A DNA stretch of 64,000 bases, taken from the sequence record MW749001.1; one strand, given 5' to 3'. Origin of the DNA: Escherichia phage vB_EcoM_Kelasse. The notes under the pieces were generated by a model. The model was not told the origin of the DNA. It did no database searches and saw only the letters and a list, made by a program, of their open reading frames with translations. A program made the translations under genes and the position numbers. How positions within the stretch are numbered: the stretch's first letter is position 1; each line of letters opens with the position of its first letter. This document shows, piece by piece, positions 51,080 to 57,314 of the stretch.

Positions 51080-51083
51080 CAAT

Positions 51084-51110
51084 GGGGACCGAAAGGTCCC
51101 CATATTTTTA
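51084..51110. terminator. Bidirectional terminator between gene 54 (plus) and the alt block (minus)
   Basis: GGGGACC-GAAA-GGTCCCC hairpin followed by TATTTTTATTT. Confidence 0.65.
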
Positions 51111-51398
51111 TTTACGGAATGAAATAAAAGCAGCAACTGAAGCAACTAAACTGTCTTCAATATAAACCTCAATTTTTACCGGAGCTTCTGACTCAAATTT
51201 ACCTGTTACTACACCTTGGAAAATACTTTCAGTCTGTTCTGGCTTTGAAAAATTTTCAGAAGGAAAAATTCCGAACTTTTTATCTGTTCCAAAAATTTTG
51301 ATAAATTCATCGTAAACTGCTTCATTAAAAGCATTATCAGCAGGAATAACGCCTTCAACTACAAGTTCTTGACCTAAAAAGCGCAAAGAAGATTTCAT
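51108..51398 (-). CDS. Hypothetical protein (96 aa), alt.-3-like position
   Basis: Complete ORF with GAGGAACA Shine-Dalgarno. Confidence 0.5.
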   Translation of the reverse strand: MKSSLRFLGQELVVEGVIPADNAFNEAVYDEFIKIFGTDKKFGIFPSENFSKPEQTESIFQGVVTGKFESEAPVKIEVYIEDSLVASVAAFISFRK

Positions 51399-51458
51399 TT
51401 TGTGTTCCTCATGTTATGTCAGTAAGACTACTATAACACAACACGAGGGACTTGTAAA

Positions 51459-53516
51459 CTACATTTTGAACTTTTTAGACATTCCGTTGATGTTAACCAA
51501 AGAAGCCAAGATTTGAGAAACTTCGTTTTCCTCTTCTTTTGATTCTTCTACAAGGAATTGATTAAATCCAGCCATTGGACGAACTTCACCAGTTTCCATT
51601 AGATGGTCGCCATCATATACCGATTCCTCTAATTGTTCAGAAGGAGGAACGATTGTACCTTCTATTAGATACTTGTTATAAGCAGTTTCTTTCATAAAGT
51701 ACGTGCTCACTTTATTAATCTTCAGTAAAATTCCACGCGGTAGAATAACTTCAGCTTCTGATGGAAATCCTGATAAATGACCTGGAACGATAACTTTGAT
51801 TCGCTCAGCTCCTTTAATTACCATACCCACGCTAGTTTCAGCATCTTCATTAGCATATGTAGAATGACTACCCATATGCATCAAATCTTCTGCATCAACG
51901 GAACCTTCTCCTTCGCCAGAAAATACTGCGCCGGAATCATCTAGAGCCATATAGTTTTTACCATGCTCACCGAAGATATTTGGTTTAAGCGATGTGGATA
52001 CGAAGTTCTTGAAATAGAACATTTTATTTTCAATGTTATGACGCAAAGTTTTAAAGGTAACTTCTTGTCCACGGTAAAGTGTAGTTCCTGGAGGAAGAAC
52101 TGAACCTTTAGCGAATGCAGAATCAAGCGTCTCAATATGTTTAATAGCTCGTTCCATATATTCTTCACGGGTAGAATCTGGTTTACCCAAAAGGAACGAG
52201 TTCATTTCAACATATGAATCTGCACAATAATCTTCAATTACATCAGACTCAGCCTGAGTTAATCCTTTTGGAGTTACTTCAGTACTTGCATATTCATATG
52301 CCTGAGCGGCAGATTCATTAATCAATTTATAAATGCCATTCATGACAAATTGAATAATAGCTGTCTTTTCATCTGGTGTAGCTTTAGAACCTTTAACTAA
52401 ATCATTGATAATTTTCTTAATAACATCAAAGCTATTAGAAATATTAATGTCAGCAAGATCGCTTAAAATTTTATCAGTTTTATAATCAAAGAATTCTTTA
52501 TTCTTTAAATATTCTTGAGAACCTTGATATGTTATATCGCTCTGCAGCTTGATAGATGGATCGCGTAAACGTGCATGGGCCAATGCAATATGATTTCGGA
52601 AGTTTTCTAGTTCATAATCGTTAGATTTAAAACGAGAAGCACTTCTCATACCACCGATAGCTCCTTTGCTAAAGTTTGAACCAATCTGAATAACGCCAGA
52701 GTTCATCGGACCTTCTGCTTTATATACCGGAACTTTAGATTCAAACTCTTGATATTTCTTAGCAGCGAAGCTATCACCCTGAAGTGAAGCATCAACAGTA
52801 GAATATTGAGCTTGTGCTGCTAATCGACGACTAATTTTAGTTTTCTGAATAACAGCTTGATCCGTGCGCTTATCATTTTCTAAAGCAATAGAAGCAGCAA
52901 CAGCGACAGCTTTAGGAACAGCATTACCTGTTTTAACGTCTACATAAACATCACCAACCTTTGATTCAACTTTTGTGAATAACTCAGTTGAAATAGGAGG
53001 TACACCTGGAATGTCTTCTAAATTGGCATTTTTACGGTAAACCATAATATATGCATATTTCTTATCATAGTCCCAGATTTCCTTTAAAAGAACATATCGA
53101 CCTGCTCCTTTAGTACGTACTAAACGGTCAGCAATAACTTGCATTTGACGAGCTGCGCCATTTGTTTTACTCTTTAGTACGCGGAATAAGCATGCATCAA
53201 TTTTATACTGTTTCATTGTTTGAAGAGCAGTATCAAAAACAGCATTAATGACGCCAATTGGATTTCCACCCAAGTTTTTAAGCTTAACTAATGATAGTTT
53301 CTCATTAACACCTATCATTACGATATGCATCATTTTGTCGCCTGGCTTAACGTTTTTATTCGTATCACCGCCAGAGGTGTATGTACAAAATCTAAATCCA
53401 GGAAGCACGCTTTCTTCACCGGCTTGAATAGCAAAAATTTGTGGTATTTTATGCTTAGGATTTAAGTTAACAACCGGCGCCGAAGCGCCGTCAAATAATT
53501 CTGTAATAAGTTCCAT
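51459..53516 (-). CDS. Alt-like ADP-ribosyltransferase paralog (685 aa)
   Basis: N-terminus MELITELFDG...FCTYTSGGDTN parallels the adjacent alt gene; C-terminal R-S-E triad elements (LYRGQ, FVSTSL, SEAEVILPRG). Confidence 0.75.
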   Translation of the reverse strand: MELITELFDGASAPVVNLNPKHKIPQIFAIQAGEESVLPGFRFCTYTSGGDTNKNVKPGDKMMHIVMIGVNEKLSLVKLKNLGGNPIGVINAVFDTALQTMKQYKIDACLFRVLKSKTNGAARQMQVIADRLVRTKGAGRYVLLKEIWDYDKKYAYIMVYRKNANLEDIPGVPPISTELFTKVESKVGDVYVDVKTGNAVPKAVAVAASIALENDKRTDQAVIQKTKISRRLAAQAQYSTVDASLQGDSFAAKKYQEFESKVPVYKAEGPMNSGVIQIGSNFSKGAIGGMRSASRFKSNDYELENFRNHIALAHARLRDPSIKLQSDITYQGSQEYLKNKEFFDYKTDKILSDLADINISNSFDVIKKIINDLVKGSKATPDEKTAIIQFVMNGIYKLINESAAQAYEYASTEVTPKGLTQAESDVIEDYCADSYVEMNSFLLGKPDSTREEYMERAIKHIETLDSAFAKGSVLPPGTTLYRGQEVTFKTLRHNIENKMFYFKNFVSTSLKPNIFGEHGKNYMALDDSGAVFSGEGEGSVDAEDLMHMGSHSTYANEDAETSVGMVIKGAERIKVIVPGHLSGFPSEAEVILPRGILLKINKVSTYFMKETAYNKYLIEGTIVPPSEQLEESVYDGDHLMETGEVRPMAGFNQFLVEESKEEENEVSQILASLVNINGMSKKFKM

Positions 53517-53519
53517 GAT

Positions 53520-55616
53520 TTATCCTTGAACGAACTTGTAAGGCATGTTTGTAATATCTATGCAAGACGCAATAATTCCAAGAGATGATTCTACTTTCTG
53601 TTTAACGTTTGATGAAACAAATGATGCAAAGTCAACTCTGTCTTCTATTTCAATATCACCTGTCATTGCAACCAATTCACCAGTTTCCATTAAATGGTCT
53701 CCATCATAGATTACCGATTCGGTGAGCTCTTCCGTAGTCATAACTTCAGCTTGAATGAGTTTTGTATTATTAGATGTTGTTCCGTCATTATTAGAAGCAT
53801 CAGTTATTTTATTAACTTTGACCATCAATCCACGCGGTAGAATAACTTCAGCTTCTGTTGCTATTCCGAGACTTCCTGGATATACAACATTAACTTTATG
53901 AGCTCCATCAATTGCCCATCCTATTTGAACTTTAACGTATTCAGGATTTTCTTTATACGCTCTTATTTCGTTTGGATTAATAGTTATTCCTTCTTCATTT
54001 TTATCAACTGTTAATTCATTGCGAGCTTCTGGTTCTAAAAGACCAATACCAGCATGTGTAATTCCAAAACGTCCAAAAATGATAGGAGTTAAAGAAGTAG
54101 ATACAAAATTTCTGAAGTAGAACACTTTATTTTTAACTAACGCTTCATATATAGGAGCAGTCATACTTTGAGCACGATAAACTGTAATGCCTTCTGGTAT
54201 ACGGTCACCATTTTCAAAAGCTGAATCTAAGTTATTTATAGCAGATTCAATTTCTTTTTCACTCATTACATCATATCGTTCTGGATTGTAACGACCTAAA
54301 AGAAGATTATTGATGTCAGTATATCCTGAACCGCAATATTCTCTAATGCCACGCTTTTGTGATGGAGTATATTTAGAACCATCGCGGGCAATAGTAATAT
54401 CAATCATTGGACCAGCACCAATTCCAGAAAAACTGTAAATCATTCGTTTGAGGAATTTAGTTTTTGCTGCGTTCCAGGAATTTTTAGTTATTTCTTCCCA
54501 GACTTCATCTGGTTGTCCTTTACGATTTTTATTATGATTAGCAAGCCATTTATCTTTATAATCTTCAAAGAATTGATTTATAGCTGCTGCGTATTTCTCT
54601 AAACATTTTATTGAAGTAGTTGGTTCATTTTTAATTGCATTAAAAATTACTTCTTTAATTTTTTCTGAAACTTCACCGACTTGACTCATTGGAAAGAATT
54701 TATAATCATAGTGAAGTTCATCTGCCGTTCCTTCAGCAATAATTTTTGCTGCCTTTGTTTTAGAAGCTAATGAATTAATTCCAATTTTCATTTCTTCTGC
54801 TTCGGGAATTAAAGGTGCAGTAGCTGGTTTATTAAAATTAGCTGCTGTAGATTCATACTTCTGGAATAATTCACTTTCAAATCTAGAAGATTCCAATGAC
54901 TGGCTTTGTGCAATTGCTCTACGGGAAATTTTAACTTTAACGATTACAGCTTGGTCAGAACGTTTATCATTTTCTTGCGCAATAGATGCTGCAATTGCTT
55001 CATTTTTGGTTACTTGAGCTCCAGTATCTTTATTAATATAAACATCACCGACCTTCGATTCAACCTTAGTAAAGAGCTCGGTACTAATTTCCGGAACCCC
55101 TGGAATGTCTTCTAGTGATACATTTTTGCGATGTATAAGAATATATGCATACTTTTTATCATAATCCCAGAGTTCCTTAAGAAGGACGTATCTGCCACCT
55201 GAACGACTACGGATAAGTCTATCAGCAATAACTTGAATTTGTCGAGCTTGGCCAGCAGTTTTAGACTTAAGAATACGAAGCATACAAGCATCAATTTTAT
55301 ATTGACGCATTGTTTGCATTGCAACAGTAAAAACTGAATTGATATAATTAATTGGGCTTGGACCAAGACCTTTTAATTTAGCAATTGAACCTTTAGCAGT
55401 TAATGTAAAAGGAACAATATGCATCATTTTGTCGCCCATTTTTAAATCACGATTAGTATCACCTCCAGATGTATAGGTACATAAACGAAAGCCTGGTTGT
55501 TCAATTGCATCATCAACATGAACTGAAAAAATTTGTGGTATTTTCTTCTTTGGATTTAAGTTTGTAATCGGAAGAGTAGTATCTTCGTCAAATAATTCTG
55601 TAATGAGTTCCATCAT
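53520..55616 (-). CDS. alt: Alt ADP-ribosyltransferase (head-packaged, modifies host RNA polymerase)
   Basis: 698 aa, N-terminus MMELITELFDEDTTLPITNL; C-terminal R-S-E triad elements (VYRAQ, FVSTSL, TEAEVILPRG); late promoter upstream. Confidence 0.8.
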   Translation of the reverse strand: MMELITELFDEDTTLPITNLNPKKKIPQIFSVHVDDAIEQPGFRLCTYTSGGDTNRDLKMGDKMMHIVPFTLTAKGSIAKLKGLGPSPINYINSVFTVAMQTMRQYKIDACMLRILKSKTAGQARQIQVIADRLIRSRSGGRYVLLKELWDYDKKYAYILIHRKNVSLEDIPGVPEISTELFTKVESKVGDVYINKDTGAQVTKNEAIAASIAQENDKRSDQAVIVKVKISRRAIAQSQSLESSRFESELFQKYESTAANFNKPATAPLIPEAEEMKIGINSLASKTKAAKIIAEGTADELHYDYKFFPMSQVGEVSEKIKEVIFNAIKNEPTTSIKCLEKYAAAINQFFEDYKDKWLANHNKNRKGQPDEVWEEITKNSWNAAKTKFLKRMIYSFSGIGAGPMIDITIARDGSKYTPSQKRGIREYCGSGYTDINNLLLGRYNPERYDVMSEKEIESAINNLDSAFENGDRIPEGITVYRAQSMTAPIYEALVKNKVFYFRNFVSTSLTPIIFGRFGITHAGIGLLEPEARNELTVDKNEEGITINPNEIRAYKENPEYVKVQIGWAIDGAHKVNVVYPGSLGIATEAEVILPRGLMVKVNKITDASNNDGTTSNNTKLIQAEVMTTEELTESVIYDGDHLMETGELVAMTGDIEIEDRVDFASFVSSNVKQKVESSLGIIASCIDITNMPYKFVQG

Positions 55617-55636: not shown

Positions 55637-55666
55637 TATTTATAAAATTAAAGGCCCGAAGGCCTT
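55637..55666 (-). promoter_or_regulatory. Late promoter TATAAATA for alt, preceded by a terminator hairpin
   Basis: Minus-strand TATAAATA (plus 55637-55644) about 21 nt upstream of the alt ATG; hairpin AAAGGCC-CGAA-GGCCTTT at 55649-55666. Confidence 0.6.
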
Positions 55667-55854
55667 TAATAATCTATTGGTAAGAGAGTACGATATATTT
55701 CAAACTTTGGACCTTTTTCATAGGCATCAAATGTTTCTGTGAATTTATTATAAGCATATGCATCTATAAATTCAATCATGATTTGTGATACAGAAGTAGA
55801 AACATCTCCACCTTCTTTTTGAGCCACGACAATTGTTTCTAAGTAAGCTTTCAT
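55666..55854 (-). CDS. Hypothetical protein (62 aa), alt.1-like position
   Basis: Complete ORF between ligase and alt. Confidence 0.45.
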   Translation of the reverse strand: MKAYLETIVVAQKEGGDVSTSVSQIMIEFIDAYAYNKFTETFDAYEKGPKFEIYRTLLPIDY

Positions 55855-57314
55855 AAACCAGTTACCTCATGAAAATCGCCAAATACATCTTCGAACGTAT
55901 TAGCTTTAGTTTTATCTTCACGTAAACGAATCGCAATCGGAAGAAATAATTTAACGTAATCAGTGCGACCATCAGATTTTAACCAACCGTTGCATTCGCA
56001 CTCTAGAATTTTTCCAATATAATAATTTTGATTTTCCATAATGCGAGTACGATCAAGTTCATGCGATTTTACACCGGCTTTATCTTTTAAGCCTGAACCA
56101 GCATTTACTTTAATTTTTCCACACTCTGATTCAAGAACGAAACCACCTGCTTTAGTAGGGTCTTTACGGTGAGGATAAATTCCTACAATTTTTAAATCAA
56201 CATCAATTACTTCTTTAAATTTATAGAGATTTTTTGAACGAGCATTTTCCCATAATCCATCGATATTTTTGAGAATAATACCTTCAAGACCTTGGTCAAT
56301 ATACTTTTTGTAAATTACCTTAGCTTCATCTAGGTTATTTACTACTTGGTTTTCAATTAAAATTACTTTATCATAGCCTGATGTCATTTGTTCTAGTTTA
56401 GAAAAACGTACATCATATTTTAAACGAAATGCTGGAAGACCATATATTTCTACTAATGGAACATAGTCCCAGACCTGAAACTTCATGCATTGTGCTTCTT
56501 TTTCAGAAATGGTTCCCTTTAAAGATTTATTGGCGATGCCATTAGATGCAGTACGTGATTCAGCTACTTCGGCGAATTCTTTAGCTTTACTAATTTCAGG
56601 ATAAGCATCAAAAAGAAAATCTAGGCCTTCTGGTTCCTTTTCAACTTGCTCATGGTATACCAATTCGCCATCAATTAACACACCTTCTGGATGAATCTGG
56701 CGGGCTTCAGCAGTCATTTTGATTAACTCTTCCTTAAGAAGATCTAATCCTAGATATTCATTGCCAGCTCGTGATAAAAGACGAACATCATCTAATTCAT
56801 CACCTCTGACTTCGGCAAAGCACCGAGCTCCATCAGCTTTTAATTGGGCAAAGGCTGGAAATTTGATATTCTTATTAATGCCTTTTTCATCATAAGAACT
56901 TGCCAGCATTTGAGGTTGTTCAGGAATTAAACCTGGCCAAACTTTATTTGCAATAGATACTGATGCACCGCATTCAAGGTCTCGCATCATCACCCGACGC
57001 AAAACTTCAACATCATCTTTTTTACCATCGGTGATGTATCCAGTTAATTCCTCAATCGCCGCATTTCCAGTCAATTTCCGAGTAGCTAACGTGAATTCAA
57101 TGAAGTCAAGCATATCGGTAAGAGTCAACATTCCAAAACTCTGGGTAGCAATACCAGGTTTAGGCCATTTCTTGATATAATACTGTAACCCACGAGAATA
57201 AGTCAGACGATATACTCGTTTAAGCAATTCATTATCTTTATTCTTTTCAAGAATTGCTTGCTTCTGCTTAGTTGAACCAATAGATGCTATTTCGTTCAGA
57301 ATTTTAAGAATCAT
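55851..57314 (-). CDS. 30: gp30 ATP-dependent DNA ligase
   Basis: 487 aa with adenylation motif KADGAR. Confidence 0.9.
   Translation of the reverse strand: MILKILNEIASIGSTKQKQAILEKNKDNELLKRVYRLTYSRGLQYYIKKWPKPGIATQSFGMLTLTDMLDFIEFTLATRKLTGNAAIEELTGYITDGKKDDVEVLRRVMMRDLECGASVSIANKVWPGLIPEQPQMLASSYDEKGINKNIKFPAFAQLKADGARCFAEVRGDELDDVRLLSRAGNEYLGLDLLKEELIKMTAEARQIHPEGVLIDGELVYHEQVEKEPEGLDFLFDAYPEISKAKEFAEVAESRTASNGIANKSLKGTISEKEAQCMKFQVWDYVPLVEIYGLPAFRLKYDVRFSKLEQMTSGYDKVILIENQVVNNLDEAKVIYKKYIDQGLEGIILKNIDGLWENARSKNLYKFKEVIDVDLKIVGIYPHRKDPTKAGGFVLESECGKIKVNAGSGLKDKAGVKSHELDRTRIMENQNYYIGKILECECNGWLKSDGRTDYVKLFLPIAIRLREDKTKANTFEDVFGDFHEVTGL

Follow-up and report, generated by a model that had tools for sequence, protein, structure and literature searches.

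The genome of Escherichia phage vB_EcoM_Kelasse raises the question of why a phage should carry, side by side, two full-length genes of the Alt type of ADP-ribosyltransferase, and whether its virions would deliver both enzymes to the host. We analysed a window of 64,000 nucleotides of its sequence record (MW749001.1), in which the two genes, here called alt and alt2, lie between DNA ligase (gene 30) and alt.1 on one side and alt.-3 and the baseplate gene 54 on the other.

Coordinates of the locus are collected in Table 1. The genes are same-strand neighbours at the positions given in a preliminary description, separated by only 3 nt between the alt stop codon and the alt2 start; the AAGGA Shine-Dalgarno sequence of alt2 overlaps the 3' end of alt. 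One correction concerns the start of alt, which has two adjacent ATGs. The ORF of 698 residues uses the first; the second has the better spacing from a GAGG, equals the T4 start and is annotated in RB14, T2 and T6, where it gives 697 residues.

Table 1. Features of the alt/alt2 locus, in positions of the window.
Feature	Position	Strand	Remarks
T4-type late promoter TATAAATA	55637..55644	minus	about 20 nt upstream of alt; predicted, consensus match only
alt	53520..55616	minus	ORF of 698 aa from ATG at 55616, 697 aa from 55613
alt2	51459..53516	minus	685 aa; full-length second Alt-family ADP-ribosyltransferase gene; own Shine-Dalgarno sequence
Alt2 N-terminal propeptide MELITE	53499..53516	minus	ends in I-x-E, the motif cut by gp21 in T4 Alt (ITE-6)
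Alt2 conserved N-terminal alpha/beta domain	52803..53498	minus	aa 7-238; candidate head-targeting or delivery module
Alt2 variable all-helical middle	52272..52802	minus	aa 239-415; sequence unrelated to the middles of window Alt and T4 Alt
Alt2 ADP-ribosyltransferase domain	51624..52271	minus	aa 416-631; R482 (52071..52073), S507-T-S509 (51990..51998), E587-A-E589 (51750..51758)
Alt2 C-terminal propeptide	51462..51623	minus	aa 632-685; after L629-E-E631, aligned with the LTE-619 gp21 site of T4 Alt
Early-type promoter-like site of alt.-3	51458..51430	minus	consensus match only
alt.-3 homologue	51108..51398	minus	96 aa, DUF5498; conserved neighbour of the alt/alt2 pair
Bidirectional terminator-like hairpin	51082..51103	.	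between alt.-3 and gene 54; consensus match only

The two proteins are paralogues, with a similarity far beyond chance: BLASTP aligns them over their full length at 41% identity (E 3e-163). Both have the N-terminal MELITELFD...CTYTSGGDTN region and the R-S-E elements YR(G/A)Q, FVSTSL and EAEVILPRG, as had been noticed before. In a windowed comparison, identity is about 65-70% over residues 1-238. It drops to 10-25% over residues 240-415, which bears out the divergent centre reported earlier, then recovers to 30-55% across the enzyme domain and stands at 20-50% along the C-terminal tail. Taken region by region, the middles are 12-20% identical, the enzyme domains 35-38% and the C-terminal propeptides about 43%.

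That both are full-length Alt-type ADP-ribosyltransferases is upheld by profile searches. PF03496 is matched by both (E 6e-20 and 1e-37), Alt2 scoring 72 bits and Alt 130; phrog_802, 'Alt-like RNA polymerase ADP-ribosyltransferase', matches them end to end (E 3e-273 and 9e-257). Precomputed domains of database matches place PF03496 together with PF26846 in close homologues. The catalytic residues are intact in both copies, those of Alt being R480, S505-T506-S507 and E587-A-E589 in the 697-residue numbering. In an alignment of 60 diverse family members, the R, S-T-S and E-x-E columns are invariant, among them R482, S507, E587 and E589 of Alt2, as is its P593-R-G595. Among R-S-E toxins, the ExE motif is typical of arginine-specific enzymes; from this motif and from T4 Alt, we infer that Alt2 probably modifies arginine.

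Alt and Alt2 each consist of four parts: a six-residue propeptide with an alpha/beta N domain, a helical middle, an R-S-ExE domain of the C3/VIP2 type and a C-terminal propeptide. A search of the PDB with the Alt2 sequence, at E values up to 1, matched no solved structure. The AlphaFold model of Alt2 has a pLDDT of 82 and a pTM of 0.76, and its C-terminal domain is matched by Foldseek to Vis, Certhrax, C3bot, VIP2 and CDTa (E 1e-7 to 1e-4, probability 1.00). By structure comparison, these C3-like and VIP2/iota-like bacterial toxins have the catalytic fold and motif order of Alt2; however, their sequences are only 14-20% identical to it, they take other delivery routes and they lack the phage head-targeting parts. 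Folds resembling the N domain occur in unrelated phages too, within large proteins that are uncharacterised and in some cases contain zeta-toxin or deaminase domains. That the N domain might act as an enzyme of the GNAT type was considered, but its structural resemblance to the GNAT fold is too weak to support this.

Among the closest known systems is T4 Alt (gpAlt, 682 aa), a head-packaged NAD+:arginine mono-ADP-ribosyltransferase and the positional orthologue of window Alt. Full-length alignment to it gives 71% identity for window Alt and 41% for Alt2. Between T4 Alt and window Alt, the N domain is about 100% and the C-terminal propeptide 97% identical, and the R, STS and ExE motifs and the ITE and LTE gp21 sites are present in both; in contrast, the middle is 33% and the enzyme domain 64% identical, so that window Alt is a different allele there. 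Alt2 has the whole architecture in common with T4 Alt, but its middle is only 10% and its enzyme domain 39% identical. Known targets (RNA polymerase alpha, MazF and others) belong to T4 Alt alone. T4 ModA and ModB fall in the same Alt/VIP2 R-S-E clade (PMC5512222, PMC9503650). These are early, unpackaged proteins of about 200 aa, devoid of the N domain, middle and propeptides, and ModB additionally attaches RNA to proteins.

An equivalent alt/alt2 pair, again with a 3-nt gap, is found in a Dhakavirus. Window Alt is 69% identical in the middle and 94% in the enzyme domain to the upstream Dhakavirus copy; for Alt2 and the downstream copy, the values are 45% and 59%. At the sequence level the genes are built of modules, with N domains that cluster according to genus and enzyme parts that cluster according to position. 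Recent gene conversion probably does not account for the likeness of the Alt and Alt2 N domains, whose identity at third codon positions is only 40-60%; therefore any homogenisation would be old, or the likeness would come from common constraint.

The preliminary description had left it undecided whether such a pair is the standard T-even arrangement or a lineage-specific one. The first stands: T2 and T6, RB phages and the majority of Tequatrovirus records have the pair, and their annotation routinely gives two Alt-like enzymes; the second, a lineage-specific novelty, does not, and T4 itself has only a remnant. Hundreds of Tequatrovirus records, T2, T6 and RB14 among them, contain the 4.9-kb block with alt and alt2 at 97-99% identity, and intact alt2 (at least 95% identity) is present in about 396 phage records. 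The two-gene locus is already known as annotation and is ordinary for T-even phages. In relatives, the second gene goes under the names 'alt.-2', 'Alt2' or 'Alt-like RNA polymerase ADP-ribosyltransferase': the 'alt.-2' of RB14 and RB51 equals window Alt2, with no difference of substance, as do the unnamed 685-aa ORFs of T2 and T6, and the BASEL 'Alt2' (bas39_0033, FriedrichMiescher) is 100% identical to it, the gene order being the same in all of these. Sister BASEL records number the pair 0031/0032, 0032/0033 or 0033/0034, with Alt2 as the lower number. The gene 'bas37_0033' of the HIDEN-SEQ preprint is either the Alt or the Alt2 gene of its phage. Comparison of the window, RB14, T2 and T6 copies gives alt2 a dN/dS of 0.02-0.05 at a dS of 0.12-0.20; on this measure, it is a functional gene under strong purifying selection.

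The small T4 ORFs alt.-1 and alt.-2 (61 and 67 aa), flanked by alt and alt.-3 like window alt2, had been proposed for comparison, and DNA alignment identifies them as the stump of alt2. Their 5' 340 nt and last 20 nt follow alt2 nearly base for base; the gene, intact in the window, has suffered two deletions in T4: one nucleotide is missing from a run of A, which shifts the frame, and 1,699 bp are missing between CTAAAGAG and CTAAAAAG, with microhomology on either side of the gap. The same deletion junction is common to about 91 records, and the PHROG families founded on T4 alt.-1 and alt.-2 match Alt2 better than Alt. The T4 record describes these ORFs as an ancient duplicate of the beginning of alt; the alignment replaces this reading by that of the remains of a full-length paralogue. 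Nor was Alt2 lost in the same event that gave rise to the T4-type allele of Alt: phage JK08 combines a T4-type Alt with full-length Alt2, and the record counts fit three haplotypes. Alt2 is missing from the T4 literature because T4 and its closest relatives lost it through the frameshift and the 1.7-kb deletion. As T4-type phages thrive without it, Alt2 cannot be essential, at least on laboratory hosts.

Would both proteins reach the virion? A predicted stem-loop ending the alt.1 transcript sits just before the putative late promoter TATAAATA, and on the minus strand downstream of alt the first terminator-like site is the hairpin past alt.-3. The T4 head contains about 40 copies of Alt, which gp21 cleaves at ITE-6 and LTE-619 (PMC5694885, PMC9026906), and a distant Alt homologue was detected by mass spectrometry in virions of Morganella phage MP1 (PMC5384007). 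Both window proteins have both gp21 motifs, at ITE-6 and LTE-632 in Alt (697-residue numbering). Glutamates aligned with E6 and E631 of Alt2 are found in 58 of 60 family members, preceded two residues earlier by L or I in 53-54 of the 60, and the C-terminal L-x-E|S-(V/I)-Y-D-G-D motif is kept in Alt2 and across the family. Because alt2 is under purifying selection, follows alt at a distance of 3 nt with a putative late promoter ahead of both, and retains both protease motifs, its product is probably packaged and injected. Most likely, Alt2 is a second packaged and injected arginine ADP-ribosyltransferase, with targets different from those of Alt.

The enzyme might instead be active but unpackaged, working late inside the producing cell on host or phage proteins. 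In our literature search, we located no virion proteome of an Alt2-bearing phage, hence no proteomic evidence of Alt2 in virions, and found no published functional study of Alt2 as a phage ADP-ribosyltransferase; a packaging signal might also have been lost from its diverged C-terminal propeptide. However, the N domain and both cleavage motifs are kept, as fits a prohead-core protein cut by gp21, and the gene lies directly behind alt in a predicted late operon. We regard this alternative as unlikely.

The explanation that we favour as a whole, with reasonable though far from full confidence, is that of two injected enzymes. Both genes would form a single late operon driven by the TATAAATA promoter (55644..55637), and both proteins would enter the prohead core, where gp21 would trim them at (I/L)-x-E sites at both ends, as shown for T4 Alt only. 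Carried in the head and ejected alongside the DNA, they would then use NAD+ to ADP-ribosylate arginines of host proteins. Alt would act on RNA polymerase alpha and other proteins, and Alt2 on a separate set, possibly including defence proteins. Distinct host targets for the two enzymes are probable, since they diverge in the middle region and over much of the enzyme domain. Against Mokosh type I, one Alt allele cannot replace another (bioRxiv 10.1101/2025.11.20.689424).

More doubtful still is the proposal that Alt2 is a redundant back-up of Alt, kept for dosage or robustness and acting on the same targets. Its overall architecture and catalytic motifs are indeed those of Alt, and T4-type phages lost it without obvious harm; yet the enzyme domains have diverged to little more than a third identity and the middles are unrelated, strong purifying selection acts on each copy separately, and the two effector types stay distinct by position in two genera, Tequatrovirus and Dhakavirus. 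Finally, an inactive or decaying paralogue, either a structural head protein or a pseudogene in the making, is very improbable: T4 shows that the locus can decay and the Pfam score of Alt2 is below that of Alt, but every invariant catalytic residue is present, the dN/dS is very low, about 400 records have an unbroken ORF and the predicted enzyme fold is confident.

Returning to the two injected enzymes, a wider reading may be offered tentatively, as possible but not the safer bet: most T-even phages, unlike T4, would inject two ADP-ribosyltransferases, Alt2 being processed by gp21 and having its own targets, plausibly a defence system, while the N domain would serve as a general delivery module for interchangeable enzyme 'warheads'. 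The notion of a delivery module comes from the recent movement of the enzyme cassette between Tequatrovirus and Dhakavirus and from the N-domain-like folds in large proteins of unrelated phages. What is known of injected phage ADP-ribosyltransferases comes almost entirely from T4, one of the minority of T-even phages that have lost the second enzyme. Should Alt2 be packaged and act on targets of its own, then T2, T6 and most natural Tequatrovirus phages would have a takeover or counter-defence step that T4 cannot show. Current studies of Alt against Mokosh and MazF are touched by this, as is the role of ADP-ribosylation in conflicts between phages and hosts more generally.

The tandem alt/alt2 observation is real and correctly described: the two full-length genes of the preliminary description, of 685 and 698 aa, are present as stated. 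Their products, Alt2 and Alt (the positional orthologue of T4 Alt), share 41% identity across their full length (E 3e-163, BLASTP of one against the other). A three-way alignment including T4 Alt, which set the zone boundaries, bears out the shared ends and differing central region. Residues 1-238 are well conserved (about 67% identity between Alt and Alt2), the middle (aa 240-415, 10-25%) retains no real similarity, the enzyme domain (aa 416-631) is 35-38% identical overall with windows of up to 55%, and the C-terminal tail is about 43% identical. Within the enzyme domain, a variable insert lies between the STS and ExE motifs. Two adjacent ATGs open the 698-aa alt ORF; the second, at 55613, is better spaced from GAGG, matches the T4 Alt start position and is the annotated start in RB14, T2 and T6 (697 aa).

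Features of the alt locus, in order of position
Feature	Coordinates	Strand	Remarks
Bidirectional terminator-like hairpin	51082..51103		after alt.-3
alt.-3 homologue	51108..51398	-	96 aa, DUF5498, phrog_1739
Early-type promoter-like site of alt.-3	51458..51430	-	
alt2 ORF	51459..53516	-	685 aa
Alt2 N domain	52803..53498	-	aa 7-238, conserved
alt ORF	53520..55616	-	698 aa
Divergent middle and enzyme allele of alt	53829..54866	-	compared with L008 1913..3997
Second exact TATAAATA match	54233..54240	-	inside alt, ~720 nt upstream of alt2 start
Late-promoter match TATAAATA	55644..55637	-	~20 nt before alt, after alt.1 hairpin; consensus match
alt.1 homologue	55666..55854	-	62 aa
DNA ligase gene 30	55851..57314	-	neighbour of alt.1

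The neighbourhood is a T-even alt locus, with genes 29, 48 and 54 on the plus strand. The pair is the ordinary, already annotated arrangement in T-even phages other than T4. It is not lineage-specific, as had been considered: the 4.9-kb alt block is 97-99% identical in hundreds of Tequatrovirus records, at least 80% of it being covered in 365 (RB14, RB18, RB51, RB68 and wV7 among them), and in the classical phages T2 and T6 the two genes are 2058 and 2094 nt long, exactly as here. The 685-aa gene is annotated 'alt.-2' in RB14, RefSeq labels both genes 'Alt-like RNA polymerase ADP-ribosyltransferase', and BASEL records name the pair 'Alt' and 'Alt2'; Alt2 of FriedrichMiescher is 100% identical to that of the window. 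Paralogues of alt in RB49, 44RR and T4 were noted earlier by Nolan et al. 2006 (PMC1524935). The alt.-3 homologue is kept beside the pair in Tequatrovirus, and also in Dhakavirus at 58% identity; T4 Alt.-3 mutants with a C-terminal extension escape the CmdTAC defence system (PMC11618068). In Pfam, the alt.1 homologue matches PF24647 'Phage blade protein' (E 7.5e-29); its ORF shares 4 nt with the end of the ligase gene.

Nor are both copies routinely annotated in T4, whose gene order is alt (682 aa), alt.-1 (61 aa), alt.-2 (67 aa) and alt.-3. DNA alignment shows the short alt.-1/alt.-2 ORFs, to which the preliminary description had pointed, to be the stump of the 685-aa gene, a deletion remnant of alt2. 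The first ~340 nt and last 20 nt of alt2 match with scattered substitutions only, one A is lost from an A run, causing a frameshift, and the near-identical octamers CTAAAGAG and CTAAAAAG flank a deletion of 1,699 bp. PHROG families built from the T4 fragments match Alt2 (E 2e-40 and 3e-38) better than Alt (E 1e-21 and 2e-19). The T4 record describes these ORFs as 'an old duplication of the first part of alt'; given the alignment and the PHROG matches, they are better read as the decay of a full-length paralogue. The deletion junction occurs in about 91 phage records, natural isolates included.

Where it is intact, alt2 is under strong constraint, and the pair is conserved across two genera. 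Across the copies in the window, RB14, T2 and T6, dS for alt2 is 0.12-0.20 and dN 0.004-0.009; the gene's dN/dS of 0.02-0.05, against 0.04-0.08 for alt, makes it at least as constrained. When 1.84 billion cluster representatives were searched, only 111 matches came back, about 57 of them full length; this search supplied a 60-sequence alignment. The alignment's invariant columns, Y430, D465, R482, S507, E587, E589 and P593-R-G595, include the catalytic residues (R482, S507, E587 and E589), which are intact in Alt2. AlphaFold models Alt2 with confidence (pLDDT 82, pTM 0.76), and the C-terminal domain of the model resembles Vis, Certhrax, C3bot, VIP2 and CDTa; a sequence search found no solved Alt-family structure.

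The layout recurs in a Dhakavirus, Esco_phi_B-01, where the ligase is followed by a 694-aa gene, a 3-nt gap, a 707-aa gene, a 96-aa alt.-3 and gene 54. The N domain clusters by genus (67% identity within Tequatrovirus, 64% within Dhakavirus, 41-46% between them), whereas the middle and enzyme parts cluster by position: window Alt is 69% (middle) and 94% (enzyme) identical to the upstream Dhakavirus protein, and Alt2 45% and 59% to the downstream one. This discordance and the shared layout argue that the pair is old and that two effector types have been kept distinct. For the Alt enzyme part, nucleotide identity to the Dhakavirus copy reaches 85-97% and third-position identity 70-90%, against about 40% at third positions in the N domain, which suggests that the genera exchanged the enzyme cassette fairly recently. 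Similarly, window Alt differs from T4 Alt only in the middle (33%) and enzyme (64%) parts, the N domain being 100% and the tail 97% identical. Judging from these comparisons, effector parts evidently swap by recombination between conserved ends, and the alt locus appears to evolve through enzyme-cassette exchange.

Searching phage records by tblastn, we counted 401 with Alt2, 318 with the window-type Alt effector part and 174 with the T4-type part, each at 90% identity or more, and 91 with the T4 deletion junction, for which 80% or more of the query had to match at one place. These counts fit three haplotypes, split by arithmetic on record totals rather than record by record: window-type Alt with Alt2 (~318), T4-type Alt with Alt2 (~83, confirmed in phage JK08) and T4-type Alt with deleted Alt2 (~91). 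Intact Alt2 is thus present in about four-fifths of Tequatrovirus-type records.

The alt2 start lies 3 nt past the alt stop codon, with an AAGGA Shine-Dalgarno sequence, and on the coding strand from alt no terminator-like site occurs before the hairpin at 51103..51082. The TATAAATA match inside alt could have arisen by chance or could serve alt2 as an internal promoter. Across the window this octamer is found at 23 sites, compared with 8.9 +/- 2.9 in shuffles, an excess consistent with a T4-type late-gene region; the window belongs to a T2/T6-like Tequatrovirus and covers genes for its baseplate, tail and head.

In T4, Alt belongs to the prohead core, at about 40 copies per head, and the prohead protease gp21 cuts it at ITE-6 and LTE-619 (PMC5694885, PMC9026906). 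Window Alt has gp21-type motifs at ITE-6 and LTE-632, and Alt2 at ITE-6 and LEE-631. Of 60 family members, 58 retain the glutamates at these sites, and 53-54 have L or I two residues ahead. Alt2 thus keeps the motifs at which a packaged head protein is processed, and mass spectrometry has detected a distant Alt homologue in virions of Morganella phage MP1 (PMC5384007). That Alt2 would be packaged, trimmed and injected as Alt is finds support in these data, not proof.

In a Foldseek search of predicted viral structures, the Alt N domain matched Alt homologues, as expected, and, in unrelated phages, similar folds in large uncharacterised proteins (E 1e-7 to 1e-4, TM ~0.5), some of which carry zeta-toxin, deaminase or ParB/Srx annotations. 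The phages concerned are Erwinia phiEa2809, Dickeya RC-2014, Vibrio VP-1 and Agrobacterium Atu_ph07. An Alt-N-like region without a Pfam ADP-ribosyltransferase domain occurs in three database proteins. The N domain may be a general head-delivery module.

Our literature search found no functional study of Alt2 itself. T4 Alt is reported to aid evasion of Mokosh type I, and the Bas37 'Alt' (bas37_0033, an Alt or Alt2 orthologue) to fail to replace it (10.1101/2025.11.20.689424, a 2025 preprint), so Alt variants cannot simply stand in for one another. What Alt2 does and which proteins it targets can be tested by experiment.
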